From: a virus
Lineage: Duplodnaviria; Heunggongvirae; Uroviricota; Caudoviricetes
DNA length: 58,955 nt
Direction: 5' to 3' (one strand)
Virus record (IMG/VR): IMGVR_UViG_3300036944_001243
Positions 2 through 54,910 of the stretch are shown here, in pieces. The translations under genes and the position numbers were made by a program. Each line of letters opens with the position of its first letter. Positions within the stretch are counted from its first letter, which is position 1. The notes under the pieces are model-generated. The model saw only the letters and a list, made by a program, of their open reading frames with translations, was not told the DNA's origin and searched no databases.

Positions 2-3000
2 TTCCAAACAGTTGCCGATGGCGCTTTAGAGCTTTCTAGACAAGGTTTAGATGCAGTAGACGTTGTTAAAAGATTAAATGATGCGCTTATTCTTTCTAGA
101 CTTTCTGGTCTTGATGCTCAACAATCAGTAGAAGGTTTGACTGCTGCAATCAACTCTTTCTCAAGTGCGGGCGTTACTAGCGAACAGATTTTGAATAAGT
201 TGGTTGTTGTTTCTCAGAAATACGCCGTTTCCGAAAGAGATCTTATCGAAGGTATCAAGCGCTCTGCTTCTGTTGCAGAACAAGCTGGCGTTTCTCTTGA
301 CGAGCTTATTGGTGTTATCACAACAGTTCAAGAAAGAACTGCGCGTGGTGGTGCTGTTATCGGTAACGCTTTCAAAACAATTTTCTCTAAAATCCAAGAC
401 AAGGGCGCTCTTGAAGATCTTCAAAATTTGGGAATCCAAGTGACTGATGCTGCTGGAAAAATTTTACCAGCGACATCTATTTTACAAAATTTAGCAAAAG
501 AATTTGAAGGTTTAAGTCAAATCCAACAAACAGACATTGCTAAAAAACTTGGTGGTGTTTACCAATTATCCAACTTACTTGCTGCTGTTAAAGACTTAGG
601 TAGTGAAGAGTCTAAATATGCTGATATTGTAAAAAAATCACAAGGAGCAACAACACAAGCTTATCAAAAGAATGTAGCGCTCAATCAAACATTAGACGCT
701 CTTATTAATAAAGTTTCTGTCAGTGCAGAACAATTAGGCGCTACTTTAGGAAAGATTGGATTGACTGATAATTTAAAAGGAGTATTGAATTTCTTTAGCG
801 AATTATTAGATGGTATTCAAAATATCCTTGGAGAAGAAAGTGGATTGGGTAGTCTTGTTCGTGGATTGGCCAAGGGTATTGGTAATTTAATTACTGGACC
901 AGGTTTGGCGTTGTTTGGTGCTATCATCCTTAAACTTTCTAAGGATTTGGTTCAATTCGGTTTTTCAAGTCTCAAGGGATTCTTTGGCATTGGGAAAGCG
1001 GCTAAAGAAATAGCTGATGTCGAAAGATCAATTAATACTGCTTTGGCAACCAATATTGGTTTGCAACAAAAACTCTTCTCATTGGAGGGAAATAGAGCAG
1101 GTCAATTAAAAGTCATAACTGACGCTTTGATTCAACAAGAAGCAGTTATCAGAAGAAGCGCGTCAATCTCAAAAGATTTAGCAAGCCCTTCTTATGGATT
1201 GGGTGTCAGAGCAACCACTCAAGGCTTGAGAGTTCCAGAAAAGAATGCTGCTGGTGGATACATGCCAGCGGTTGCAAAAGAAAGCTCTGACATTAGCAGA
1301 GGAGTTGGTGGCGCAAGATCGGGCGATAAGCCTGTTATTATTCCTAATTTTAATTTTGGCGGCGGCAAGAAGGGTTCTATTGTTGCTCATACAGGAGAGT
1401 ATGCGATTCCTAATTTCGCTGGCAGTGGTGGCACAGCTATCTTCAATAGAAACATGGTGCAAAAAATGGGATTGCCTGCTGGAGCAAAGAAGATCACAGC
1501 TTCTGGGGGATTTATTCCTAATTTCGTTGATTATACACAATATTCTCAAAGTAGATTATCAAGCCTCGTTAATGGGAAAAATTTTCAAAAAAAATTAGAA
1601 TCTGGATCTTTGAGTCAAGAAGAGAAATCTATCCTTGAAGCTTTAAACGCCAAAACAGCTAAATTTTCTAATACATGGAATGGTGAATTATATCCATCTA
1701 GTGTTATGCTGTTGCCTAATGCGTCATCAGGTCAAAATATTAGCCATTCATTTAAAGAACCATATGGTGGATATGATATGTTTGTTGGAAAAGCTTATGG
1801 TATAAATCCAAATTTATCTAAAGATTCGAAATTTAAAAAAATGTTAAATTTAGATTCTGCCATGGATGAATCTTTAGCTAGTGCAGCTAATTTTGTTTTG
1901 CAACAAGTGAAGCCAGATATTGATCCTCAACCAGAATCAGTAACTTCTTCAAATATAAAAAGTTTAATTAGTGCTTCTGGAGGTGCTGGAGCTTTAGGTT
2001 CAATTAGAGGCGCTTTGTTTGAAGCTGTTACAAATTCAATTATAAAAGGAGTTTCTAAAGAATCTATTGGTGCTGGAAATAATAATACTCTAGATGTAGA
2101 ATTTGGCGCATCTAATAAAAGAAATGTTTTAGAAGAAATTTTCGGTTTACCAAAAAATCATTATGATTACGGTGATTATAAAAACAGTTTAGAGCAAAAA
2201 GATAAATACGTTAGACAAGTAATTGATAATTTATCTAAATCTAGAAAATCTAGAATATCTAGAGCCGTATCAGGTTATATACCAAATTTTGCTGATCCAC
2301 TGAAAGATGCAATTAATCGTGAAATGGCTGCTGGAGTGCCAGCATCGCAAATCTACATTGACAAAAACCAATCTCTCAAGAGCGCATCAAATCCAATGGG
2401 TTTGATGGTTGCTAATCGTCGTGATGAGCCTATGGGTGGCCAACAGGGCATTAACCGAGCAATCAAAGAAGGTCGTAATCCAAAGACATATGGTGCTGCT
2501 GGTGGATTTGTGCCAAATTATGCAGAAAATATAAATTTCAGTCCATATATTGGGAAAAATAGACAAGACGCTTTAGCTGAAGAAACAAAACAATATGGAG
2601 AAGCTCTTATTAAAAATACAGAAGCTCTTATTAAAGCTAAAAAAGAACTAGATAAAATAACAGATAAAAATAGCGCCAAAGCCGTTGCATTGACATCAGA
2701 AATAAAAGCATTAAAAGATAATGAAAAAACATTAAAGGATAGTTCTATCGCGACAAGAAAAGTCATAACAGAGCAAACTAAAGGAATTCTTGGAACTGGG
2801 AGAACGGCGACATTACGCCAAGCCAAAGTAACAGGCTCAACTGCTGGAGGCAGCAAGGATATGCTTGGAACTATTTTTGCTGTGCAGGGAGCAATGACCG
2901 CATTGTCTGGAGCTACGGAAGGTGCTACTAGCGGTTTTGCGAAACTTACTAATGGAATTTCATCAGCAGCTAGCACTGCTACTACATTCCTTTTCGCTGG

Positions 3001-6000
3001 ACAAGGACTCGCTCAATCTTTTGGTGGTGCAGAAAAAGGCATTGGAAAAGTTGTTGGAAAATTAGGAGTATATGGAGCAGTAGCAGCGGGTCTTTATACT
3101 GGATTTAAAGAGCTTACTAAATATCTTGATTCTACAAACCCATCTATTCAAAAAGCTTCAGAGTCAATGCTGAGAGTGTCTGATGCCGCTAGTAAAGCAG
3201 CAATTAATTTAAATACTTTAAATCCAGCACAACAAGAAATAGTTAAAAAGCAATCAGCAGATTTAATTGCTGGGGCTAGAAAATATGAAACTACTGTATA
3301 TACACCAACTATGGGGACATATGGAGCTTCTAATGTTCAAACTGGTATAAACTACGCTAACTTTGAGGGTGTCAGTGATCAAATGAAAGTGGGATTTGAA
3401 AATCTTATATCACAAGCCGCAGGAGTAGGGGTTGATACAAATACAATATATAATGAAATGAGATCAAGATTTCAAAGCGGAAGTGTAATGACTTCCTCTG
3501 AGGTCCAAGATCTCTCTAATTTATTAAGTAATCAAATATCAGAAATTGCAAAAAAAGGCTCCCCAACATCAATAATTCAAGGCTTAACGGAAGAGCAGAA
3601 GAAAAAATACGCATCAATTACTCCAAAAGAGATGGAGGATGCCATTTCCAATAGAACTAATGAAGATGGATCGACTAATAATAATAATATATTAGCGGAT
3701 TTACAGGAAAAATTTTTTACCGCTGGTGTCAAAGGTGATGTTGCAAGACAAGAATCAATTCGCAAAACAATAGAATTGCTGAGAGATCAACAGGCTGCTG
3801 AAGAAAATACTCAAAAAGAAGCTGTATCTAAAGTTCCAGTCCAGCTACGCGAAACAATCAAAAATATACAGCGTGAAAAACTAGAAAGAGAATCCATAAG
3901 AAAAATAGATCAGGATATATCTAAAACACGTTATAACTCTTCTGTTGCTATTGCTGGTATAGAAGCTGATTTGACGCTTTCTGCATCGCAAAGAGCTATC
4001 AAGACTCTTGAGGTTCAAAGCGCTTTAGAAAAGCAGACTGCTGAATTAGAAGCTCAAAAATCAATTCAAGAAGAATTGAATAAATTAGTTGCAGAATTTA
4101 CAGATAATCCTGCGTTTAAATTAGTTCAAGATGGAGAAAAAATTGCAAGAACAACTTTGCAAGGGCTCACTACAAACGAAAATGCCAAAAAACTACTTGG
4201 AGCACCAAAAGATGAACAAGAAAACGCTGCTATCGATTTGGTTAAAGAAAGTTTAAAAGGCACTGCTTTAGCGCCTATTGAGAGTGCGGCAGTAGCTTTA
4301 GCAGATCAATTATTGAAAGCTCTCAATTTGCAAGAGAAAGCTAACCAATCTCTTGAGGATGCTAATAAAGAAAGAGAAAAATCAAAAAATCTTGAAATAG
4401 TCAAAAATAAAATTCAAGAACAGAATAATAGACTTCTCCAAGAAGCTCAAAGTAGAATATCTGCTATTGCTGATAACTACACAATGAATGCTGGAAGAGT
4501 TGCTGGAGAAATTCGTTTAAATTCTCCAAGGCAAGAATTAGCTTTAGCTCAGTATAATGCAACCACACAAGAAACAGATCCTCGCAAACTTAGAGAAGAT
4601 CAAAGAAAAATAATTGACGAATTCTTCCAAAAGCAAGTTAATTTACAAGCTGAACAATCACGTATTGAAGCAGAAGCTGATTTTATCAGAAATCTAAAAG
4701 TTGAAGATAATATAAAATCAATAGATGAAAATACTAAAGCATTAAAAGATCTTTATGATTCTTTAACAAAAGAAGCAGCCATGACTCCAGAAAATGTTGC
4801 AGCAAAAAATACAGATTTAACTGGAGTTGATACAGTGCATTTGCGCAAATTAATTGCAGCAGAAGTGGGCTCACAAGGAGAAAATGCTCAAGCAGCACTT
4901 CTAGCGACAATATTTAATAGAGCGGAAAAGCAGGGTAAATCTATTAATGATATTAGCAAAAATGAGAGATATTATGCGCCTTTACAAAATCCTCAAAAAT
5001 TCATGGCGACGCCTCCAATTTCGCAAGATTTATTTGATAAAATTTTAAAGAATCCGTATATAAATTCTCAATATTTGCATAATGCTACTAATAATGCTGA
5101 AGGAAGAGCTATGATGAAGAAGGAGGGTGTAAATTTTGAATCATCAGCAGCTATAATTGGAAATGAATATTTTTACAATAAACCAGGAGAATTATCGGGA
5201 GCAAAATCAACTGGAATAACATCGCAAAAAGCTTCTTTAAGAACAGCAGAAATTGGTTCAGAAGCAATTAATAAAGCCAGAGAGCTTTCATCAATACAAG
5301 ACGCTACAACAATTAATGAAAAAGCTTTAGAATATGCTAAAACAGTTGCGACTACTGAAGAATCTGCGCAGGGTCTTGCGGAACAAATAAAAAATCTTGC
5401 CATTAGAATGCAACAAATTGGCAAAGAAAAAACTTTATCTGGAGAGGAAAATACTCTGAAGAATATGGCTCAATCTGCGCAGGATGTTGTAAGATCTTTA
5501 GCTTATCTAGACAAAGTAAGTATTGAACAATCTATGCAACAAGCTCCTTCTACATTCTCAGAAGGAATGGCAAATGGATTTTTACAGATTCAGGCAGATG
5601 GTCAAAACTTCGCTTATCTTTTAGGAAAAGATATTCCAAAGATGTTTGCTGAAGGCATGTCCAATGCAATTAATTCAGCAATCGAAGGATCTAAATCTAT
5701 TGGTGATGCTTTAAAATCTGCCGCATATGAATTTGTCAAAGCTATTAATCAAAAATTAATGGGCAATTTGGTAGATAAAGCTGTTGGAGGTTTGGGCAAT
5801 TTAGGAATGAGCTTTTTCCAAACTAAAGCTGCTGGAGGTATGATTACTGGCGGATCTGGAAGCAAAGATGATGTTCCAGCAATGCTTATGGGCGGAGAAT
5901 TTGTTATGAACAAAAAAGCCGTGCAAAAGTATGGCCCAGATTTCTTGAATGCGCTCAACAGCGGATCTATTGGTGGATATGCAAAAGGTGGACCAGTTCA

Positions 6001-6970
6001 AAGAGGACCGCAAGGAAACTTTTATACACCAGGTCAATACGGATCGGGCGCAATCTCTGGTTCTAAGAACTTGTTGGATTTTGCAACACAATCCTATAGC
6101 AGTGGCAAAAGAGACGAAATCATCAACAGTGGTAATTTTGCTTCAATCAATTTGGAAGCGGAAAGCGCAAGATTAACTAATTTCGGCAGACAAAACAATC
6201 CTGCCGCAGATGCATTAAGATCGGCAAAAGAAGAAGCTTTCTCTTTATACTTGAGAGATTATGAAGCCAAAAAAGAAGAACAAAAGAAACAAAAGGAACA
6301 ATCTAAGGCGCTAAAGAATCAATTATTGATGCTTGGTATTTCTGTTGTCGGTGGTTCTTTAGTTAAGTCTGCGGCGACTGGATTTGGCAATGCTTATACT
6401 CAAGCTCAAAATTTAGGCCAAGGATATATGTCATCTTTAGGCGCTGGAGTAGAAGGAATATGGAGTGGATATAACGGATCTGGAGGATTGGCTAATATAT
6501 TTAGCGATACAGCATTCACTCCTCGCGCTAAAATTGTTGGCGACGTAAATGGAATGCCATACGCAAAATATAGAGCTACAGGAGGAATGATCCCTCCAAC
6601 ATCTGGAATCGACACTGTATCTACAATGCTTACTGGTGGAGAATTCGTGATGAATCGTGCGGCTGCTCAAAACATTGGCGCGGGCAACTTGCAATCATTG
6701 AACAGCGGAGCAAAGTCACTTCCAACAGAAGAAAAGAGCGAAGAATTGAACGACAGATTGATCTCTAAGCTTGATGAGTTGATCGAGGCATCAGGTGCCG
6801 CAGGCAACATCACAATCAACGTAGAAGGCGGCTCTGGCAAGTCTTCTGAGACTTCTGATGGCAAGAGTGCAGAAGGCAAGCAACAGCTTGCTAGACAGAT
6901 CAGAGACGCAGTTCTCAAGGTCATCCAAGAAGAGAAGAGACTCGGTGGTCAATTAAGAAGAGGAATGTAA
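2..6970 (+). CDS. Tail tape measure protein (TP901/PhageMin_Tail type), 5'-partial; contains a putative nuclease-like cassette and a SleB-like hydrolase domain
   Basis: Frame is open from nt 2 (FQTVADGALELSRQG...LSRLSGLDAQQSVEGLTAAINSF), so the real start lies upstream of the window. Over 2300 aa, Ala/Gly/helix-rich, with TMP motifs (ERTARGGAVIGNAFKTIF; AAGGMITGGSGSKDDVPAMLMGGEFVMN). Followed by tail genes. Confidence 0.92.
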   Translation, partial: FQTVADGALELSRQGLDAVDVVKRLNDALILSRLSGLDAQQSVEGLTAAINSFSSAGVTSEQILNKLVVVSQKYAVSERDLIEGIKRSASVAEQAGVSLDELIGVITTVQERTARGGAVIGNAFKTIFSKIQDKGALEDLQNLGIQVTDAAGKILPATSILQNLAKEFEGLSQIQQTDIAKKLGGVYQLSNLLAAVKDLGSEESKYADIVKKSQGATTQAYQKNVALNQTLDALINKVSVSAEQLGATLGKIGLTDNLKGVLNFFSELLDGIQNILGEESGLGSLVRGLAKGIGNLITGPGLALFGAIILKLSKDLVQFGFSSLKGFFGIGKAAKEIADVERSINTALATNIGLQQKLFSLEGNRAGQLKVITDALIQQEAVIRRSASISKDLASPSYGLGVRATTQGLRVPEKNAAGGYMPAVAKESSDISRGVGGARSGDKPVIIPNFNFGGGKKGSIVAHTGEYAIPNFAGSGGTAIFNRNMVQKMGLPAGAKKITASGGFIPNFVDYTQYSQSRLSSLVNGKNFQKKLESGSLSQEEKSILEALNAKTAKFSNTWNGELYPSSVMLLPNASSGQNISHSFKEPYGGYDMFVGKAYGINPNLSKDSKFKKMLNLDSAMDESLASAANFVLQQVKPDIDPQPESVTSSNIKSLISASGGAGALGSIRGALFEAVTNSIIKGVSKESIGAGNNNTLDVEFGASNKRNVLEEIFGLPKNHYDYGDYKNSLEQKDKYVRQVIDNLSKSRKSRISRAVSGYIPNFADPLKDAINREMAAGVPASQIYIDKNQSLKSASNPMGLMVANRRDEPMGGQQGINRAIKEGRNPKTYGAAGGFVPNYAENINFSPYIGKNRQDALAEETKQYGEALIKNTEALIKAKKELDKITDKNSAKAVALTSEIKALKDNEKTLKDSSIATRKVITEQTKGILGTGRTATLRQAKVTGSTAGGSKDMLGTIFAVQGAMTALSGATEGATSGFAKLTNGISSAASTATTFLFAGQGLAQSFGGAEKGIGKVVGKLGVYGAVAAGLYTGFKELTKYLDSTNPSIQKASESMLRVSDAASKAAINLNTLNPAQQEIVKKQSADLIAGARKYETTVYTPTMGTYGASNVQTGINYANFEGVSDQMKVGFENLISQAAGVGVDTNTIYNEMRSRFQSGSVMTSSEVQDLSNLLSNQISEIAKKGSPTSIIQGLTEEQKKKYASITPKEMEDAISNRTNEDGSTNNNNILADLQEKFFTAGVKGDVARQESIRKTIELLRDQQAAEENTQKEAVSKVPVQLRETIKNIQREKLERESIRKIDQDISKTRYNSSVAIAGIEADLTLSASQRAIKTLEVQSALEKQTAELEAQKSIQEELNKLVAEFTDNPAFKLVQDGEKIARTTLQGLTTNENAKKLLGAPKDEQENAAIDLVKESLKGTALAPIESAAVALADQLLKALNLQEKANQSLEDANKEREKSKNLEIVKNKIQEQNNRLLQEAQSRISAIADNYTMNAGRVAGEIRLNSPRQELALAQYNATTQETDPRKLREDQRKIIDEFFQKQVNLQAEQSRIEAEADFIRNLKVEDNIKSIDENTKALKDLYDSLTKEAAMTPENVAAKNTDLTGVDTVHLRKLIAAEVGSQGENAQAALLATIFNRAEKQGKSINDISKNERYYAPLQNPQKFMATPPISQDLFDKILKNPYINSQYLHNATNNAEGRAMMKKEGVNFESSAAIIGNEYFYNKPGELSGAKSTGITSQKASLRTAEIGSEAINKARELSSIQDATTINEKALEYAKTVATTEESAQGLAEQIKNLAIRMQQIGKEKTLSGEENTLKNMAQSAQDVVRSLAYLDKVSIEQSMQQAPSTFSEGMANGFLQIQADGQNFAYLLGKDIPKMFAEGMSNAINSAIEGSKSIGDALKSAAYEFVKAINQKLMGNLVDKAVGGLGNLGMSFFQTKAAGGMITGGSGSKDDVPAMLMGGEFVMNKKAVQKYGPDFLNALNSGSIGGYAKGGPVQRGPQGNFYTPGQYGSGAISGSKNLLDFATQSYSSGKRDEIINSGNFASINLEAESARLTNFGRQNNPAADALRSAKEEAFSLYLRDYEAKKEEQKKQKEQSKALKNQLLMLGISVVGGSLVKSAATGFGNAYTQAQNLGQGYMSSLGAGVEGIWSGYNGSGGLANIFSDTAFTPRAKIVGDVNGMPYAKYRATGGMIPPTSGIDTVSTMLTGGEFVMNRAAAQNIGAGNLQSLNSGAKSLPTEEKSEELNDRLISKLDELIEASGAAGNITINVEGGSGKSSETSDGKSAEGKQQLARQIRDAVLKVIQEEKRLGGQLRRGM

Positions 6971-10276: not shown

Positions 10277-11356
10277 TTAATTAGAGAAAGATTCAATAAT
10301 CGAATCAACAGTTCTTGAGTATGTCATTGTTTTACCCAATTCAATGCCCTTTTTATTAGAAGATGAAGACTTATTCGCGGCAGTTTCCATAGCAGAAATC
10401 GCGACATCTTCATCCCAAGTATAAAACACTCCTTGATTGAATTCTTGACCTTCTAGGAAGAAGTATCCATCAGCAGACGGCATCTGTCCATTCACAGGAA
10501 CCATAACTGAGTTTTCCTCAGTCGCCCAATCAAGGTGAGATGTGGCTCCCAATACGACAGACCACTTGCCTAAGCAAGTAGCATTGAAGCTCGGTAAATT
10601 CCAGCCTTCTCCACCACTAAGACCAGTAAGATCCACATCAATAGCATTCAAGAATTCATTTACTTCTTTATTAGTGGCCAAATATGGTAGGAAGTTAATA
10701 TTGGTATATCTCTTTCCGCCCAAAATATTTGAGATCGCCAACTGCATTTGCTCTGGCTTAAAGAATGGATTAGTGATACAGCAGGATAGCTGATAACGAT
10801 TATCATTGCCGAACTTCTTGAGCCAAGCTTTGATAATCGCGGCTGTATGCTTTCTCTTTTCGAGTTTGCCCATCAATCCAAAATGAATCACTCCTTCTAG
10901 ATATTGCTTATTTGTAGGCTTAAAATCTTGGTCAAATCCAAGAGGAAGAAATGCTGTATTGTCGCATCCAGCAGCATCAAAAAGATCTTTGGAATATTTT
11001 GAGCTAAAGAATGTCAAATCCTGAGACTTGCAAACAGAAACCTCATGCTTGGTTGGTTGGCTACATTCATAAAATGTATACAAATGCTGCTTTGGAGTCT
11101 TGCGATTTTCTCCACCATTAAGATGCCACAGCTTAAACACTGGAGTTTTTTCAGAAAGAAAATCGAGTCTTCTGTCAATACTTGTTTGAAGCCACTGACC
11201 AAATGATTGATCTAATGAATACGCAGAGAGATCGGGATTCCCGATTGGGAACAGCCCGATCTCAACGTTCTTCTTATACATTTCTCTTAGAATGTTGAAT
11301 GAAACATTCCCAAAGGAAAGCTGGTTAATGGGGCATTCTACTATTAATTTTTTCAT
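10277..11356 (-). CDS. GT-B fold glycosyltransferase (GT4-like)
   Basis: FGLMGKLEKRKH...LKKF, and the GT4 donor-binding motif SGGEGWNLPSFNATCLGK. Confidence 0.8.
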   Translation of the reverse strand: MKKLIVECPINQLSFGNVSFNILREMYKKNVEIGLFPIGNPDLSAYSLDQSFGQWLQTSIDRRLDFLSEKTPVFKLWHLNGGENRKTPKQHLYTFYECSQPTKHEVSVCKSQDLTFFSSKYSKDLFDAAGCDNTAFLPLGFDQDFKPTNKQYLEGVIHFGLMGKLEKRKHTAAIIKAWLKKFGNDNRYQLSCCITNPFFKPEQMQLAISNILGGKRYTNINFLPYLATNKEVNEFLNAIDVDLTGLSGGEGWNLPSFNATCLGKWSVVLGATSHLDWATEENSVMVPVNGQMPSADGYFFLEGQEFNQGVFYTWDEDVAISAMETAANKSSSSNKKGIELGKTMTYSRTVDSIIESFSN

Positions 11357-11385
11357 ATTTAGTTTTGGTAATGTGAAATCGCTAT

Positions 11386-11394
11386 GTGTAATAT
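11386..11394 (+). promoter_or_regulatory. GTGTAAnAT promoter-like motif upstream of the GIY-YIG gene
   Basis: GTGTAATAT, then 5 nt, then ATG at 11400. The same motif precedes several other genes. Confidence 0.6.
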
Positions 11395-11399
11395 ATTAT

Positions 11400-12095
11400 A
11401 TGATAATATATCAAATTTTAAATAAAATAAATAATAAATGCTATATTGGGCAAACAGCTACTTCTTTTGCCAGAAGATATGATAATGGGGGATGGCATAT
11501 TCAAAGCAATAATTATTTAAGAAACGCAGCGCGAAAATATGGGCTAGAAAATTTTGAAATAAATATACTAGAGGACGGTATATGCTCAATTAATGAATTA
11601 AATGAAAAAGAGATATTTTATATAAAAAAATTTAATTCAATAATGCCGAATGGATATAATTTAATGGAGGGCGGGCAAAGAACTTTAGATAGGTGTCATC
11701 ATGAAAAATCTAAAGAAAAAATGTCTAGATCGCAAAGAAAAAATTCAGAAAACAACTACAGGTTTTTGAATCATCATACAAATAAAATTGTTGAGGTTGC
11801 AAACCTAAGTAAATTTTGTAGAGAAAACAATCTTTCTCATTCCATGATTTGCAACGTTGCCAATGGAAAATACAAAAGACATAAAAACTGGACGCTTCCA
11901 AAAACTAAATTAAAAAAATGGATACTAAGAGATCCAATCGGAAACACTCATTTAATTTTAGAAGGAGAATTCCGAGCGTTTGAAAAAAATCATAATATAA
12001 AAAGATCAGGAATATATGCCTTGATTCACAAAGGATATAAATCCCACAACGGATGGACAGTTGTGGGATTTAACGAGCATCTTTTCATTAATTAA
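11400..12095 (+). CDS. Free-standing GIY-YIG homing endonuclease
   Basis: MIIYQILNKINNKCYIGQT (GIY-YIG), plus LNEKEIFYIKKFNSIMPNGYN and two C-terminal NUMOD/IENR-like repeats. Start moved from 11292 to the ATG at 11400. Antisense to its neighbours. Confidence 0.88.
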   Translation: MIIYQILNKINNKCYIGQTATSFARRYDNGGWHIQSNNYLRNAARKYGLENFEINILEDGICSINELNEKEIFYIKKFNSIMPNGYNLMEGGQRTLDRCHHEKSKEKMSRSQRKNSENNYRFLNHHTNKIVEVANLSKFCRENNLSHSMICNVANGKYKRHKNWTLPKTKLKKWILRDPIGNTHLILEGEFRAFEKNHNIKRSGIYALIHKGYKSHNGWTVVGFNEHLFIN

Positions 12096-47264: not shown

Positions 47265-50200
47265 TTAAGTGATAGAAAAGTTAGTAATTGCTGGTTGCTC
47301 CATTTGTGTTAATGCTCCAGTATATGCAATAAAAGTTCCAGTTTCTTTGGTAATTGAATTTAAATAATTACTATTATTTCCCAAAGTTGTTAACTTTAGT
47401 TTCCACTGTCCCAAAGACTGAAGGCCAGTTAATAAATAACTTGTAGAAGAGTTATTGGCAATGTATTCATGGTATTCATTGTAAACAGAATTATAGATTT
47501 CAACCTTTGTTCCATCTCTACGTGAGTCTCCACTCCATGATGCTCTTAAAGAAAATCTATCGGAATCTAAATCTTCTCCAGAAAAAGTAATTCCGCTTGG
47601 TGCTGGCAATTCTGTGATTTGCACATTATTGATTGTTATAGGTCCAGTAGAATAAGTAGCTGGCATAAAATCTTCTGCAATAAAGTTTTCGATTTCTGCA
47701 AATTTACCAGTATTGTATTTGCTTGCGACAATCGAGTATTCATTTTGGTTTTGTTCTCTTATTGAAATGATTTTATAGATTTGGTCGCTTGCATTTTTTC
47801 TTTCTAATCTGTATGGACTTCCAGCAGCAATTTTTGATACCAAATTCGCATTAACATCACCGCTGCTAATATATACTCTTGATCCGAAATCTAATCCAGT
47901 AGATCCAGATAAAATAAATCGTGTGATTTGAGGATGATTAGCGTTTTCTACTTCTGATAGCAAAGGCCCACTATAACCTTCGTTTTGATAGAATTTAAAT
48001 GATGCGGATATGTCTCCAGAAGATCCTCTTCTATTTCCAGACGCTGTATCATAAATGAATCCTGTTTTCTCATAGCTGGCTGTTTCAACCGAAATATCAA
48101 AAATATCTGACAATCCTGTATTGGTTATGACTTTATCATATAAGTTATTGTCTTGAAATGCTCTACCAGTTGATAAAACAAATCCTGTATACCCTGTATT
48201 ATAATAACAATAGAGATTTTGATTATGGGATGTGCTTTTTCCAGTATATAATGGATACTGAATCCCAGATAGGTGTTGAGTATTTATAATTTTTTCGCTA
48301 TAGCCAGAGAAATAATAGCGACCAGTTAATGAATTAACGATTAATAAACTACCAGTTATATCAAAATAATCGACTCTGCTTCTTTCTGTATCCGCCAAAG
48401 CATTTAATTCGTTATTGGTAGAATACCCAGTAGGAGTATAAACAGTAATAGTATTATTCATTTCTGCACTTACAAAAGTATTATCAATAGTTAAAGATTT
48501 TTCAGCAACATTTATATCAAGAACTCTTCCGTAATTTGTGGCTCTGGTTTTTAATTCATCTTCTAAGATTATTAAATCTCCAGGTCGGCATAATAAAGAT
48601 TCTAAGCCAGCGAGGAATTCAACTCCTTGATTTTCTTTGATTGTTTGATAAATAATATGTTGGCCGATTCTTCTTGCCATGGCTCTAGAAGTAACACCCA
48701 AAGTATTGATTGTTGTTTTGAAGATTCCTCTTTTTCTAATATCTGGTTCATCTTGAACGTATTCAATTTTGCTTTGATAGTTATCGAACCTGTCTAAATA
48801 TGCCACTTCTACGGTATTGAATTGCTGATCTCTTCTTGAGTTTGTGTAATTAAATACCCCGTCTTTAACATTGGTGTTAGTGAAAATGGCAATAGGAATT
48901 CTCGGTCTATCGTCTAAGAAATGAATTTCTGAATTGCTGAAAAAGACAATTCCTCTAAATAAACTAGCAACCACATTAATAGCATCAAATATTTTAGTTT
49001 GTTCTCTGAATACAATATTGCATGAATATCTTGGCTCTAACCCACCAACACCGTCTGAAACTCCAACAAAGAACCCATTATCATCAACTGCATCACAGAA
49101 GCGAGCAATTTTGTATAACTCCCATTTATTGATTTGGGACTCGTCAATATAAGAGCCAAGACCATATCTTTTGCTGGTCAACAGATCGTATATAATCCAA
49201 GCTGGATTATCAGTCCATCCTTCTTTAAATTCGCCACCCCAATCTCCAGCATAAATTTGATTGCTTGAATTATAATCTGAAGCTTTTTCTATATATCTTT
49301 TATCTGATCCATCAGGATTCAAAGGAGTATAATTACTAGGTATTTGAATTTTTTTCAATCTACAATCATAACTTCTTTCTGGAACAGAACTAAAAGATCT
49401 AGCATCCAATTTAATACCTAACAATGATGAAAAAGGATAAGATAAGTTGCTTTCAACAATTTCTGTAATTTTATTAACATAGATGTCTTTATTTATTAAG
49501 ATGGAATTTGTTTCGGCTGATAATTTAGTTATTTTTACGTATCTTTTTGTTGAAGTTGGATCTTCTCCATCTTGTAGCGCGGGTAGTTTGAAAACAATAT
49601 TTTCTTCAATTGATTTTAGTGAAGAATCAGATGAATTAAATTCTTTTACTGCGTCTTTTAAATTGGAGTTTATTTTAGACTCTGGAGCGCCCAAATCAAT
49701 TAACATTTGACCTTCAATCAAAGCTAAAACAGAAAAGATCTTAATTATTTTGCTCGTATCATCGATCTGACCATTGTTTATTTTACCATATTCAATCTTA
49801 AAATTAACTATAGAAGGGATTTTTGATCCAGCTCTAACAAGTTTACTTGAATCAGGTAGTATAGATGATCCCCAATCACTTCTTTTATCAATTTCAACAG
49901 TGTCACTCAATGAAGAAATGGCAAGTGTAACATAAAAAGATGTTGTGTTTGAATTTTCAATAGTATGAGTTATTGCTATAGCTTCTTCATCAAAAGAATT
50001 TACAGCGTTCCAATCTGAATAATTTTCGGGTTGGTTTTTTGCATTTTTGCCAACCACAAGATCTCTTTCGTCTTTAGATCCGTCTCCGTCAGTAATAGCC
50101 TGAGACAACAACATTGACAAATTTGGTTCGCTAGTATTTTTAGTTTTAAGATCAATCAATCTTTGAACTGCAATTGCATTTCTAAATGGCCCAAGCAATT

Positions 50201-51509
50201 TAGAATTATAATCATAATCAATAAAAATATTTTTAAAATGCTCCAGAGGAATTTGATCCTCTGATCCATCTTTAAATTCGCAAGCGACATTTAAGAAATT
50301 ATACTTATTAGCTTTTGAGAAATTTTTTGATTCAGGCTCTTTATAAAGAGTCAGTGGTATTTCTTCATTAGTGAAAGGGATTGTATTATCAATGTTGATT
50401 TTATAAAAATATTGATAAGCAGGAGCGCCTTTTTCGATATAAGAAGAATAATTATTCAACTTAAATATAACACAACCAAATAATTCGCTGTTGTATTTTG
50501 AGTCAGTTGGTGAATTAGTTATTATTGATGGAACTATAATTTTTGTTATACTTGAGGACGGAAAAGATTTTTCAAAATTATTCAAATAAAAAGAAACATC
50601 GACTAATTTTTTTGAATCTGTCGGATCTATTGCTGAAGAATTATTAGCTTGGTCCCATTTAGCGTTTTGTTTTAATGCTCTTGATCCAATTTTAACAACA
50701 AAAAAAATGTCATTCTTAGATTTCCAATCGAATGAATTCTTTTTTGGATCGAAATATTGATTTTTGAAATTTTCTAATTTTATTTGAGCTTTTGTTATTG
50801 ATTCTTGTTGAGGAACATTGCTGGAAGAGCTTTCTCTTTCATTCTTTATTCCCGTCTCAAGATCATTTAATATTGTTCCAGCAGCAAATAGGGAGCTTTT
50901 TGTATAATGAACTTCAAGATCTTTAGCGAGTGTTTGAAAATATTGAATAGCTGTTGATTGAGTCGGATTTCCAACCCACATCCATCCATTTCCAGCTTTT
51001 CCAATTGTTGAATTTGTTAAGGGAGAATATAACTGGCTTTTCCTAGAGCCACCATCATCAAATTTAGCCATTAATAAATTTGATTGAATAGCTGTATAAA
51101 GTATCGCTGGTGCAACCGTTCCAGCAAATGGAAATTTATATTTTTTATATGATTCTGAATTATTATCATAAAATGTATCTCCAAATTTATTTAATCCACT
51201 TTGTATATCAATATGAAATATTTTGTTTTCATTAGCATACTCTTCAAATCTTGGATTTGTGACTTGGACTGGGGTATTATCTAAATAAACACCTTGTAAA
51301 ATACTTTGGCCATCTTCTAAAACTTGTCCATTTTGATTAACTAATCCTTCGATTGGACCATCAGAAATCAAATCTATCATTTCAACCACGCTGTATGAAT
51401 TTAAAATTTGGAAATTACCAATTTCAGGTGGACGCAAAACTGCTGGTTGTGGCTTTGGTTTGCTTTTACCACCTCCTTGTAAGATTTTTTTATTAAATAA
51501 GTGTTTCAT
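47265..51509 (-). CDS. Tail tip/host specificity protein J (lambda gpJ-like)
   Basis: MIDLISDGPIEGLV, YLDNTPV, SYPFSSLLGIKLDA, WTDNPAWIIYDLLTSKRYGLG, IDKW-like INKWELYKIARFCD, EPRYSCN, RPGDLI. Confidence 0.92.
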   Translation of the reverse strand: MKHLFNKKILQGGGKSKPKPQPAVLRPPEIGNFQILNSYSVVEMIDLISDGPIEGLVNQNGQVLEDGQSILQGVYLDNTPVQVTNPRFEEYANENKIFHIDIQSGLNKFGDTFYDNNSESYKKYKFPFAGTVAPAILYTAIQSNLLMAKFDDGGSRKSQLYSPLTNSTIGKAGNGWMWVGNPTQSTAIQYFQTLAKDLEVHYTKSSLFAAGTILNDLETGIKNERESSSSNVPQQESITKAQIKLENFKNQYFDPKKNSFDWKSKNDIFFVVKIGSRALKQNAKWDQANNSSAIDPTDSKKLVDVSFYLNNFEKSFPSSSITKIIVPSIITNSPTDSKYNSELFGCVIFKLNNYSSYIEKGAPAYQYFYKINIDNTIPFTNEEIPLTLYKEPESKNFSKANKYNFLNVACEFKDGSEDQIPLEHFKNIFIDYDYNSKLLGPFRNAIAVQRLIDLKTKNTSEPNLSMLLSQAITDGDGSKDERDLVVGKNAKNQPENYSDWNAVNSFDEEAIAITHTIENSNTTSFYVTLAISSLSDTVEIDKRSDWGSSILPDSSKLVRAGSKIPSIVNFKIEYGKINNGQIDDTSKIIKIFSVLALIEGQMLIDLGAPESKINSNLKDAVKEFNSSDSSLKSIEENIVFKLPALQDGEDPTSTKRYVKITKLSAETNSILINKDIYVNKITEIVESNLSYPFSSLLGIKLDARSFSSVPERSYDCRLKKIQIPSNYTPLNPDGSDKRYIEKASDYNSSNQIYAGDWGGEFKEGWTDNPAWIIYDLLTSKRYGLGSYIDESQINKWELYKIARFCDAVDDNGFFVGVSDGVGGLEPRYSCNIVFREQTKIFDAINVVASLFRGIVFFSNSEIHFLDDRPRIPIAIFTNTNVKDGVFNYTNSRRDQQFNTVEVAYLDRFDNYQSKIEYVQDEPDIRKRGIFKTTINTLGVTSRAMARRIGQHIIYQTIKENQGVEFLAGLESLLCRPGDLIILEDELKTRATNYGRVLDINVAEKSLTIDNTFVSAEMNNTITVYTPTGYSTNNELNALADTERSRVDYFDITGSLLIVNSLTGRYYFSGYSEKIINTQHLSGIQYPLYTGKSTSHNQNLYCYYNTGYTGFVLSTGRAFQDNNLYDKVITNTGLSDIFDISVETASYEKTGFIYDTASGNRRGSSGDISASFKFYQNEGYSGPLLSEVENANHPQITRFILSGSTGLDFGSRVYISSGDVNANLVSKIAAGSPYRLERKNASDQIYKIISIREQNQNEYSIVASKYNTGKFAEIENFIAEDFMPATYSTGPITINNVQITELPAPSGITFSGEDLDSDRFSLRASWSGDSRRDGTKVEIYNSVYNEYHEYIANNSSTSYLLTGLQSLGQWKLKLTTLGNNSNYLNSITKETGTFIAYTGALTQMEQPAITNFSIT

Positions 51510-52162: not shown

Positions 52163-52569
52163 AAAATTTTTCCTTTTAACCTTGTTAGTATGTTTACATC
52201 ATAATCTTTATTTTTAGGCTCATAAATATAAAATTTGCGAGAATTAATAGAAAAGATCGTAAATGTCAAGCATGATGCTTCGGACATTCTAATATCAAAA
52301 TCAGATGGATTCTCATCTCCAATTACATGACTATGAAAAATCGAAAGCATTGAATACTGATTTTTGAATTTCAAATAACTAGCTGGATTTATGCTAAAAA
52401 ATGATCTTGGATCAGATGATTCATTCTTTTCTAATGTGACAACAAAGCATTTTTCGATTTCATCAAAACCAATAAATCCGCAAATCTCATTGTTAAAGTT
52501 GCGAATAGAATGATTTATAATAAAATCTTTAATATCGTTTATAGATTTTGATGTAATTTTATCTTCCAT
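52159..52569 (-). CDS. Tail assembly protein K, JAB/MPN domain only
   Basis: EICGFI...IFHSHV...PSDFD (JAB motif); no NlpC/P60 domain. Start set at ATG 52569. Confidence 0.85.
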   Translation of the reverse strand: MEDKITSKSINDIKDFIINHSIRNFNNEICGFIGFDEIEKCFVVTLEKNESSDPRSFFSINPASYLKFKNQYSMLSIFHSHVIGDENPSDFDIRMSEASCLTFTIFSINSRKFYIYEPKNKDYDVNILTRLKGKIL

Positions 52570-54910
52570 ATTTTTCAGTTCCAGGGAATCCACCAAATGG
52601 CAAATAAGATACGAATGTTTGTGGTGAGTCGGCACTAGAATTTGCGTAATAAATAACTGTATCACTATAATCCATACTTCCCGTATATTGTCCACTCAAA
52701 ATAATTTTTCTTGTAGAAACGTTTTCTCCTGTTATTTCATATGGAGCGGAATCGCTTAAATTCATACCCCACCAATCATATAAACCAATTTTATGATTAT
52801 CTTGCAGTTCTGAATATTTTCTTGGCTTTAATCCAACATTAACACTATTATTAAAAGTGCTTTTTTCGTCGGTTCGATTAAAGAATTCTGTTCTTCCGTA
52901 ATCCAAACTGCCAGTCCATATAGCTGTAGAACCAAGTCTTATGTTACTTGTTATTTTTAAATTTGATTCTGGAGTTCCATCGTTAAAACTAGGAGTAGAT
53001 AATAATTCAGAAAACTGCCAATCATTAATACCAAATTTTAGATCTCCCATTCCATTATTGAATGCGGTATTTTTGAAAACAAAAAACTCTCCAGAAGCGA
53101 CGGTTGTATTTCCCCTAGTCACGACTTTTCCGCTCGGAGGAGCAATAGTAAAAGTTTTTATTTGGCCCGCTCCAGACAAAGAAATATATCCTTCTTTAAA
53201 AGCTGTTGGTCTTGTTCCTGTGGATGTTCCACCAGAACAAAAAATATGAAAAGGATTCATATTTTGAGCAGACCATTTTATTGATAGTTGTCTTGGGTAA
53301 ATTGCATAACCACTTGATGTTAAACTTCCAGTTAAATATGCGGTAGCAAAATCGAGGATTAATTCTTGACTTGAGCCAACACCAGAAAGATATAGGTTTA
53401 TTCCGCTAGATTGACAATTAGATTTTACGTTATGAAGGACGTTTGTATATTGTTTTGATTGAGAAATGCCATTTGGAAATTGAACCCAGCTAGATAACTG
53501 CCAATAATCCTTGGAAGAAATATTGTCTGCTTGAAAGCTTGTGTTGTATAAACCTAGACCAGTAGGCTCAAAGACACAAACTTCTGAAAGTCCAGGATAA
53601 GCGCCATTGCATCCGCTGCCACTGATTGTAATAGATGTTACTGTAACAGGATCACTTGAGAATCCAGAAGTTATTCTTGATCCATTGGTTGGTATATTCG
53701 AAAGAATACCAGACTTTACTAAACTTGCTCCGTTATAAAAAGTGATATACGCTCCGCTAAAATTTGAATAAGTTTCTGGTCGATCATATAAATCAATTCT
53801 ATCAATTGTTTTTGGAGAATTCCATTGTAAAGACACCCAAGGATCGGGCGCACTGGTTCCAGAACTTTGCCAAGAATAAAAACTTCCAGTTTGTAAATTA
53901 TTAATGTTAGAGGCGGAATAAGAAATAGAATACTCGCTAGATGCAGTAACTGAAGCCAATGGCGCAATATTATTGTAAGCATTGTAGCCAGCTTTATGAG
54001 AGAAATCAACATAGTTGTTAGTAATAGATTCACCAACTGTGTTAGATGTCCATATTGGGGCGTTTTGGAATCTTTTTTTACAACCGTCTAATTTTTTATT
54101 ACAGCCATCTCTAAGCCAATATGTATCATTAGACCCAGGCTGGTATTGCGAAGAAGCAGAATGGCCCGTTTGACAAACATACCAAACTTTAGCTGGCTTG
54201 CCATCAACAATGATTTTTTTATTTTCTATATATGTGAGTTCGCCACTTTCAAAGTATTTACCAATAAACCAAGGATCTTTTATTAAATTCCATTGACCGC
54301 TGTAATTTATTTTTCTGCCGTCTTCAGTTTCAATAGGAGGGCCAGCATACTTACAACCATTACCTCTATAATACCAAGAACAATAACGAGATAAAATCAA
54401 ACGATTATTAATATCAAAATTATCTAAGTCAAGAGGAGAAGTGAGTTCCAGCTCTACAAACGTTTTATTCTCTGCTGTTTTTTGACTTACGACAAAAGTA
54501 TCATTACTTACTTCGGCGGATGCATCTGCTTGGCCCCAAGGATTGCCACCATCAAAATTCGCATCATCTAAATACTTAACGAAGGTTCTTTTTCTAACGA
54601 TCTTGGCAAATTGCAAATCATGATTGTTTAATAACAAATCAGTCATGAAGTAATCTTTATTGGATATTCTGATTTTTGGGCGAGCCATTTGGCCATTCGC
54701 ATTTACCTCAAATCCTTCAGACTCAACTGGAACAGGTAGGTATTCAACACCCTGCCATTTAATACCTCTCGAAAAAACAGATCCACCATGAAATGCAATA
54801 TAAACACCTTCTTTATCAATAGTATTGAAATATAGCAGAAATAATTCTACAATAGCTGTAGGTTGTAAATCCAGCAAGCTGAGTGCGATTTTATCTTGTC
54901 CTTGTCCCAT
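52559..54910 (-). CDS. Minor tail protein L (lambda gpL-like) with a ~490-aa insertion
   Basis: YLPVPVESEGFE, RKRTFVKYLD, CSWYYRGNGCKY, CNKKLDGCKKRF, and terminal LPFGGFPG. Confidence 0.9.
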   Translation of the reverse strand: MGQGQDKIALSLLDLQPTAIVELFLLYFNTIDKEGVYIAFHGGSVFSRGIKWQGVEYLPVPVESEGFEVNANGQMARPKIRISNKDYFMTDLLLNNHDLQFAKIVRKRTFVKYLDDANFDGGNPWGQADASAEVSNDTFVVSQKTAENKTFVELELTSPLDLDNFDINNRLILSRYCSWYYRGNGCKYAGPPIETEDGRKINYSGQWNLIKDPWFIGKYFESGELTYIENKKIIVDGKPAKVWYVCQTGHSASSQYQPGSNDTYWLRDGCNKKLDGCKKRFQNAPIWTSNTVGESITNNYVDFSHKAGYNAYNNIAPLASVTASSEYSISYSASNINNLQTGSFYSWQSSGTSAPDPWVSLQWNSPKTIDRIDLYDRPETYSNFSGAYITFYNGASLVKSGILSNIPTNGSRITSGFSSDPVTVTSITISGSGCNGAYPGLSEVCVFEPTGLGLYNTSFQADNISSKDYWQLSSWVQFPNGISQSKQYTNVLHNVKSNCQSSGINLYLSGVGSSQELILDFATAYLTGSLTSSGYAIYPRQLSIKWSAQNMNPFHIFCSGGTSTGTRPTAFKEGYISLSGAGQIKTFTIAPPSGKVVTRGNTTVASGEFFVFKNTAFNNGMGDLKFGINDWQFSELLSTPSFNDGTPESNLKITSNIRLGSTAIWTGSLDYGRTEFFNRTDEKSTFNNSVNVGLKPRKYSELQDNHKIGLYDWWGMNLSDSAPYEITGENVSTRKIILSGQYTGSMDYSDTVIYYANSSADSPQTFVSYLPFGGFPGTEKYGR

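Follow-up and report, generated by a model that had tools for sequence, protein, structure and literature searches.

A peptide-fenced bay of exchangeable cassettes in the tape measure protein of an uncultured phage

Tape measure proteins (TMPs) of phages are usually viewed as rulers and channel formers that carry at most one lytic domain, and both single enzymes embedded in TMPs and TMP-derived effectors of contractile injection systems (CIS) are already known. In phage T5, the TMP pb2 is trimeric in the tail tube, contains a hydrophobic stretch and undergoes a maturation cleavage after R1127 that splits off its enzyme domain (PMC10038345). The giant TMP gp96 of the Thermus phage P23-45 begins with an N-terminal virion RNA polymerase, followed by membrane and lytic parts, and this polymerase is experimentally active on the entering DNA, so that a TMP can carry an enzyme acting in the cytoplasm (PMC10770324). 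Sle1, among the effectors of actinobacterial CIS, consists of a TMP-derived scaffold with an exchangeable functional domain, which is loaded in the tail-like tube and ejected (PMC13277306). Moreover, the polyvalent proteins of phages and conjugative elements join 2–15 effector or enzyme domains in one chain, in combinatorial composition, and the proposal for them is that they enter the host together with the DNA and come apart on deployment; TMPs receive 0 mentions in that work, which ascribes processing to metallopeptidase domains (Iyer, Burroughs, Anand, de Souza and Aravind 2017; PMC5512222). The present analysis concerns the TMP gene at the start of a 58,955-nt stretch of viral DNA (IMG/VR record IMGVR_UViG_3300036944_001243; the whole stretch is hereafter called the window), in which one short peptide, the fence, delimits interchangeable cassettes within an internal region, the cassette bay. 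In full-text searches of the literature, no account was found of TMPs with arrays of cassettes fenced by a motif.

Among these systems, P23-45 gp96 has a layout like that of the window TMP, with the enzyme part, putative in the window, lying N-terminal of the membrane part; however, gp96 carries one fixed enzyme, without a repeated fence peptide or an interchangeable array, and has no sequence relation to the clade of the window TMP. T5 pb2 has a single cut and a single C-terminal muralytic domain and shares no alignable homology with the window TMP, whereas Sle1 is the cargo of a bacterial CIS and not a phage ruler, with a single C-terminal domain and neither a fence motif nor an array. Polyvalent proteins represent the nearest general concept, but here the carrier is a TMP and the fence is one ten-residue peptide.

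The gene lies in an open-ended 6.97-kb open reading frame (ORF) that codes for residues 130–2451, the last 2,322, of a TMP whose full length is known from a protein database entry (P0002; 2,451 aa), since the edge of the window cuts the 5' end. Its identification as a TMP in the first-pass annotation, which had been made from the letters of the window alone, agrees with the profile searches: the protein matches PF10145 (PhageMin_Tail) in Pfam with an E-value of 7.6e-28 and 98 bits (cut-off 33.2), its best PHROG match is phrog_4211 (E 3.2e-46), and seven more TMP-annotated PHROG families match at E ≤ 1.9e-10. It is also a very long ORF amid tail genes, with a match to a minor tail protein (phrog_14) two ORFs downstream. 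The parts of the gene on which the argument depends are the following:

2..6970 (+): TMP gene, 5'-truncated by the window edge (open ORF with PF10145 and PHROG TMP families)
8..556 (+): PhageMin_Tail domain (PF10145), Pfam match to residues 3–185 of the window protein
1247..1525 (+): conserved module A, present in all 120 relatives examined, at a constant position
1526..2266 (+): cassette B (247 aa), F1 family, putative enzyme-like domain of unmatched fold (hmmsearch, GC3, blastn, AlphaFold)
2267..2521 (+): conserved module C, present in all 120 relatives, with the fences VSGYIPNF (2267–2290) and AAGGFVPNY (2495–2521)

A region-restricted search gave 915 significant proteins (at least 915 clusters at 90% identity), and 120 giant TMPs, with lengths of 1,425–4,034 aa, were examined among them. 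Modules A and C frame the bay in 120/120 of these relatives, with identities of 55–99% for module A and 50–91% for module C, and the distance between them ranges from 227 to 1,533 residues. The A–C interval holds 1–7 cassettes per TMP, each of which ends in G(G)[FYL][IVL]PNF, so that the motif is found at all cassette boundaries, and single-linkage clustering separates the cassettes into 23 families, which occur in many combinations and in partly different orders. The earlier proposal that the segments between motifs vary among related TMPs in number and identity is borne out by this alignment, which is far from a collinear arrangement devoid of turnover. The window TMP has the minimal bay, composed of module A, a single cassette and module C. 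The framing modules can themselves be duplicated, since in the TMP at one related locus (L004:12381-12622) module C recurs about 2.1 kb further downstream, in a copy with 74% identity to window positions 2282–2523.

The four copies of a hinge-like motif that the first-pass annotation had listed are all present, in the TMP frame, with AAGGYMPAV starting at nt 1247, ASGGFIPNF at 1499, VSGYIPNF at 2267 and AAGGFVPNY at 2495. Module A opens with the first of these, a degenerate copy (1247–1273), contains two internal IPNF half-sites and closes with the second (1499–1525). Across the clade, the fence at the end of each cassette has the ten-residue consensus AAGG[FY][IV]PN[FY]A, in which positions -4 to -1 are small residues followed by an invariant Pro-Asn. 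The pattern [FYLM][IVLM]PN[FY] occurs in 535 copies in the 120 TMPs, versus 0–3 per shuffle in 20 shuffles, and these copies are restricted to the second to fifth tenths of the proteins. In 177 copies of the motif, codon choice is free, with all four codons in use for Pro and for Gly and both for Asn and for Phe. This indicates that selection acts on the fence as a peptide; a recombination site at the DNA level was ruled out because of the free variation at synonymous positions.

Cassette turnover by recombination was observed at nucleotide resolution in 49 IMG/VR loci (L001–L049) retrieved with module A as bait; cassette B as the query in IMG/VR yielded no close relatives. Two of these loci (L005 and L008) share 96% identity as far as the final base of a cassette of family F5, after which they carry unrelated cassettes (F3 versus F6), realigning 20 nt before the cassette end, and a break and resumption of the same kind surround the F1 cassette in the pairs L007/L010 and L006/L009. 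Homology of the window to the loci in blastn stops at 1524–1530, resumes at 2260–2282 and stops again at 2522–2532, with 24–36 loci aligning in module A, 22–26 in module C and 0–1 in cassette B. The exchange junctions, as the first-pass annotation had supposed, lie at the motifs. Moreover, synonymous divergence (dS) within one pair differs several-fold among segments, which points to segment-specific histories; for L016/L019 it amounts to 0.75 in the N-terminus, 0.54 in module A, 0.14 in F1 and 0.57 in module C. The nearest backbones (P0027, P0026 and P0029) are 89–93% identical to the window TMP over residues 1–640/670, yet they carry other cassettes, whereas the closest relatives of cassette B (72–80% identity) occur in backbones that are only 61–71% identical. 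Junctions at the fences, segment-specific dS and the mismatch between backbone and cassette identity together establish cassette turnover by recombination, and cassette B itself looks recently imported. It is proposed that gain, loss and swapping of cassettes would survive only where junctions coincide with fences, and the junctions would be found there because only recombinants joined at fences persist. In this proposal, the fence peptide would be a natural, portable junction, which could explain how modules are exchanged without loss of function.

The fence probably has a role at the protein level, either as a processing site or as a docking linker between cassettes. The first of these would make the TMP a polyprotein, whose cassettes a phage or host protease would free at maturation or after ejection; this is compatible with the preferred reading of the bay and seems possible, although its chance is judged to be clearly below even. 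The conservation of the peptide with free synonymous codons, its small residues at -4 to -1 and invariant Pro-Asn, and its position in a low-pLDDT (predicted local distance difference test) linker at the cassette end of the AlphaFold model would all suit a cleavage site. Phage polyvalent proteins, proposed to be cut apart on deployment (PMC5512222), and T5 pb2, whose cut after R1127 separates an enzyme domain, provide precedents, and the context of the T5 cut (SFVPR/AEGG, cleaved at the slash) has F-V-P and the following Ala/Gly-Gly in common with the fence peptide (PMC10038345). Nevertheless, that likeness is one of three residues without alignable homology, and no protease was found, either as a domain of the window TMP, including a metallopeptidase (MPTase) of the polyvalent type (Pfam E ≤ 1; sub-segments E ≤ 10), or among the genes that precede the TMP in L001, which is the closest relative of the window in the IMG/VR viral-contig collection.

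The single cassette of the window stands out in composition. As had been noticed from the letters, segment 1526–2266 is more AT-rich than its flanks: GC content and GC content at third codon positions (GC3) are 0.302 and 0.126 in cassette B, 0.459 and 0.344 in module A, and 0.431 and 0.271 in module C, while the GC content of the whole window is 0.362. Cassette B is the lowest-GC3 stretch of 247 codons among all large ORFs in the window, and its AT-richness lies at synonymous sites, not being merely an effect of Gly/Ala/Pro-rich flanks. Among 1.8 billion representative proteins, cassette B has 44 matches, all of them in TMP-like long proteins or fragments. Its family, F1, was modeled as a hidden Markov model of 31 aligned copies, with which the default filters of hmmsearch miss 21/120 F1 domains, whereas the --max option finds all, placing an F1 domain in 120/120 relatives. 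Because every relative contains it, sequence comparison indicates that cassette B is a core part of the TMP clade, exchanged as divergent alleles, and not an optional effector. The notion of swappable effector cassettes advanced in the first-pass annotation consequently does not extend to cassette B, but it keeps some ground in the accessory cassettes of relatives, some of which look like ATP-using enzymes.

Within F1, a few positions are nearly fixed while the mean identity of the 194 copies counted is about 20%. These positions are, in cassette B:

2009..2023 (+): G-x-x-F-E helix motif (G162, F165, E166), in predicted helix 154–176
2093..2095 (+): near-invariant Asp D190, D in 193/194 copies (99.5%), at the start of a short predicted strand
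2174..2182 (+): D-Y-K, the (D/E)-x-K motif (D217, K219), in predicted strand 215–218
2216..2218 (+): K/Q position (Q231), K in 124 and Q in 68 of 194 copies (99%), in the helix after the (D/E)xK strand

The Gly at 162 is found in 194/194 copies (100%) and the Phe at 165 in 188/194 (97%), position 166 is Glu in 180/194 (93%) and Asp in 13/194 (7%), position 217 is Asp or Glu in 193/194 (99.5%), and Lys219 is retained in 192/194 (99%). The strings IRGALFEAV, TLDVEF and YGDYKNS, singled out in the first-pass annotation, are indeed present and lie on the most conserved F1 columns. The ratio of nonsynonymous to synonymous substitution rates (dN/dS) is 0.03–0.6 for F1 in unsaturated pairs, versus 0.04–0.2 for module A and 0.04–0.34 for module C, where most pairs lie at 0.04–0.14 and the value of 0.34 comes from a single low-dS pair; F1 changes much more rapidly than both modules and, on these ratios, is a fast-evolving domain under purifying selection.

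The order E ... D ... (D/E)xK, characteristic of PD-(D/E)xK nucleases, is present across the 194 F1 domains. Two AlphaFold models of cassette B, with pLDDT values of 80.6 and 78.4 and predicted template modeling (pTM) scores of 0.68–0.71, show a mixed fold, in which a beta meander of three strands is combined with long helices and a pair of short strands. The description of this segment as globular rather than helical is right as regards the mixed fold with its meander, but not as regards helices, several of which are long. E166 lies in a helix, D190 at the start of a strand, (D/E)xK in a strand and K/Q231 in the following helix, a placement that in these models matches where the residues of PD-(D/E)xK enzymes sit. 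In such nucleases, especially Cfr10I, Bse634I and PspGI, the residues E, D and (D/E)xK occur in an order and a secondary-structure setting like those of F1, and these three enzymes are the only solved chains that aligned over the entire C-terminal half of the B model. The proposal is that the F1 constellation of GxxFE, D, (D/E)xK and K/Q would form a metal-binding active site, most likely of a nucleic-acid-directed enzyme, with a topology that would depart from the textbook PD-(D/E)xK fold.

Several results weigh against such an enzyme. In the models, the D strand is set apart from the (D/E)xK strand by a helix, the predicted topology departs from the canonical alpha-beta-beta-beta-alpha-beta core, and the three-stranded meander bears none of the conserved residues. 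Pfam has no family for cassette B or the 31 F1 members at E ≤ 10, giving scattered chance matches only, and the F1 profile found no PDB chain at E ≤ 10. An Atlas look-up of cassette B gave only low-recognition matches, to secreted proteins of the Cj0814 type; this likeness to flagellar-secreted proteins was treated as driven by composition and set aside. Furthermore, Foldseek found nothing at E ≤ 0.001 with the B models against PDB (two models) and BFVD, PHROGs on B and Pfam or PHROGs on modules A and C alone gave nothing above noise, and re-folding a trimmed core did not raise the scores against restriction endonucleases. In profile comparisons with hhalign, F1 was linked to families F21, F22, F14 and F13 at 33–84% probability and was not linked to F12, F5 and F7, whose PD..ExK strings look more canonical by eye; a match of F1 to F4 was an artefact of one unsplit double cassette. 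The earlier comparison of the segment with PD-(D/E)xK nucleases is retained in part, since the E..D..(D/E)xK residues are 93–99.5% conserved, but no Pfam, PDB or Foldseek match accompanies them and the topology is non-canonical; that F1 may be a PD-(D/E)xK-like enzyme is a tentative reading of sequences and models, with a chance that falls slightly short of even.

Alternatively, F1 could be a structural, non-catalytic module for trimerization, contact with the tube, the channel or the holding of the DNA end, in which the charged residues would serve in salt bridges or in the binding of a partner or the DNA end. Its universality in the clade, unlike the accessory cassettes, would be expected of a core structural part; moreover, no enzyme family or fold was matched, long helices dominate the model, and contacts of TMP ends with partner proteins and with DNA are known (80-alpha and T5 papers; PMC10038345). 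However, a set of seven positions (a Gly, an aromatic residue, three acidic residues and two that are basic or amide) kept at 93–100%, while the rest stands at about 20%, is typical of active sites, and F1 evolves much faster than modules A and C, which are clearly structural. A structural F1 is considered unlikely.

The accessory cassettes of relatives provide further indications of enzymatic content. The commonest accessory family, F2, occurs in 22/120 TMPs and is absent from the one-cassette bay of the window. It keeps GxGxxG, VGVKK, D(L/F)HGSN and IDxG in four sequences compared, and in an Atlas look-up ten out of ten named matches fell in the kinase clan, the top one being a 196-aa OspG effector kinase (recognition 2913); profile searches of the F2 sequence against Pfam and PDB gave no match, and no stand-alone F2 homologue was found among proteins of similar length. 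On the basis of the motifs and of language-model features, F2 looks like a protein-kinase-like domain, similar to the OspG mini-kinase. Family F4 shows an invariant GPAGSGKST (Walker-A) and an Arg-rich, lid-like stretch, and the Walker-A matches of F4 were the only ones above noise when ten accessory cassettes were searched against Pfam and PHROGs. E..D..ExK-like strings can be seen by eye in F5, F7, F12, F13 and F14, and the remaining accessory families have no recognizable features. Several apparently unrelated effector or enzyme domains per polypeptide, as in polyvalent proteins, are thereby found in the clade, but not in the one-cassette TMP of the window.

The preferred reading of these data is that the TMP contains a fenced, exchangeable cassette bay with an enzyme-like F1 domain and that its cassettes are delivered to the host, a combination for which the chances are considered about even. 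The bay is situated in the N-terminal third of the TMP, upstream of a hydrophobic Gly/Ala-rich segment:

3050..3106 (+): hydrophobic Gly/Ala-rich segment downstream of the cassette bay (Kyte–Doolittle, 19-residue window, >1.2)

By analogy with T5 pb2 (PMC10038345), this segment is a candidate membrane-inserting part of the TMP. It is proposed that, owing to their N-terminal position upstream of this segment, the cassettes would leave the tail at a late stage, immediately before the DNA, so that the host cytoplasm could be their place of action. ATP would be available there to the cassettes of relatives that are kinase-like (F2) or contain Walker-A (F4), and, since ATP-dependent domains would make sense only in the cytoplasm, we infer that delivery is favored. 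Another hydrophobic stretch, at 872–964 (GLALFGAIILKL), directly follows the PF10145 domain upstream of module A, head-proximal of the bay, and represents a second candidate membrane-active stretch of the TMP.

Other considerations speak against the preferred reading. A folded 25-kDa domain in three copies has no obvious fit in the lumen of a tail tube, judging from tube dimensions; a protease that might separate the cassettes is missing from the places searched, as indicated above; and the fence resembles the T5 site in F-V-P only, within two proteins that do not align. An extension of the preferred reading, considered rather unlikely, is that, in a very large clade of uncultured aquatic siphophages, TMPs are programmable injection polyproteins whose cut-and-swap points are marked by the ten-residue fence. 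The nuclease-like F1, as the universal cassette, and a changeable set of kinases, NTPases and further nuclease-like domains would be stored in the lumen, enter the host cytoplasm before the DNA does and be set free by cutting at the fences. Such a TMP would be the phage counterpart of multi-effector toxins such as MARTX, located inside a ruler protein. Delivery of the cassettes, if it occurs, would make the tail lumen a second cargo hold, providing ready-made ATP-using and nucleic-acid-directed enzymes in the first seconds of infection, with a bearing on how phages pre-empt host defenses. The clade also poses a physical puzzle, namely how tail length is set with TMPs of 1,400 to 4,000 residues and how a 4-nm tube accommodates folded domains.

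That the cassettes are length spacers or evolutionary baggage, and the motif a neutral flexible hinge, is very improbable. The wide range of TMP lengths in the clade, from 1,425 to 4,034 residues, and the lack of a recognizable family for most cassettes would fit such a role; nevertheless, F1 is under purifying selection in unsaturated pairs and has near-invariant polar residues, F2 and F4 retain complete kinase and Walker-A motifs, and a neutral hinge would not keep 535 copies to a consensus of ten residues. A true polymorphic toxin system, the analogy drawn in the first-pass annotation, in which the cassettes would be toxins against competitors paired with immunity genes, was already disfavored and is extremely improbable, for although the conserved scaffold, variable modules and junction peptide with recombination recall CdiA (VENN) and Rhs (PxxxxDPxGL), the modules here are internal and arrayed instead of C-terminal, every relative has the core cassette, a minor tail protein match but no recognizable immunity gene occurs among the ORFs that directly follow the TMP, and stand-alone or orphan copies of B or F2 were not found.

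Beyond the bay, the C-terminal part of the TMP includes two related modules:

5828..5993 (+; end approximate): first C-terminal module, AAGGMI...GGEFVMN (translation; phrog_13338)
6575..6721 (+; end approximate): second C-terminal module, ATGGMIPP...GGEFVMN (translation)

Both have in common the pattern A-x-G-G-M-I, D-x-VP/ST-x-ML-x-GGEFVMN and LN-x-LNSG, and phrog_13338, of unknown function, matches residues 1943–1995 in three stretches at the first. The start of these modules resembles the fence peptide and also the T5 pb2 sequence just past the cleavage site (AEGGMMYPG...GEHGTEVV). Between the bay and these modules, at 4680–4900, a motif recalling the N-terminus of SleB/CwlJ-type cell-wall hydrolases (AAEVG...NR) was tentatively read by eye, but Pfam gave no match. 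Precomputed Pfam assignments show VanY, SLT, GH19 or phage-lysozyme domains in relatives instead, which suggests a second swappable slot in the TMP, for a lytic module.

Regarding the genome as a whole, lambda-type tail-tip genes J and L together with the minor tail protein match indicate that the window derives from an uncultured, siphovirus-type phage. The gene for a lambda J-like central tail fiber lies at 47265–51509 (−; phrog_31, E 1.5e-114) and that for an L-like minor tail protein at 52559–54910 (−; phrog_18, E 5.8e-51), both about 40 kb from the TMP gene and on the opposite strand, so that the tail genes are arranged in distant blocks. The lineage is very far from described phages, since eight ORFs upstream of the TMP in L001 (L001:53-6326) have no PHROG match at E ≤ 0.01; in addition, 50,697 GenBank phage genomes contain no match to the 430-aa A–B–C region (tblastn) or to the first 7 kb of the window (blastn). 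Downstream of the TMP, an ORF at 11292–12095 (+) matches PHROGs of homing endonucleases (phrog_314, E 1.4e-29, as well as families of the GIY-YIG and HNH types) and overlaps a glycosyltransferase-like gene (10277–11356), which runs on the opposite strand, at its end.

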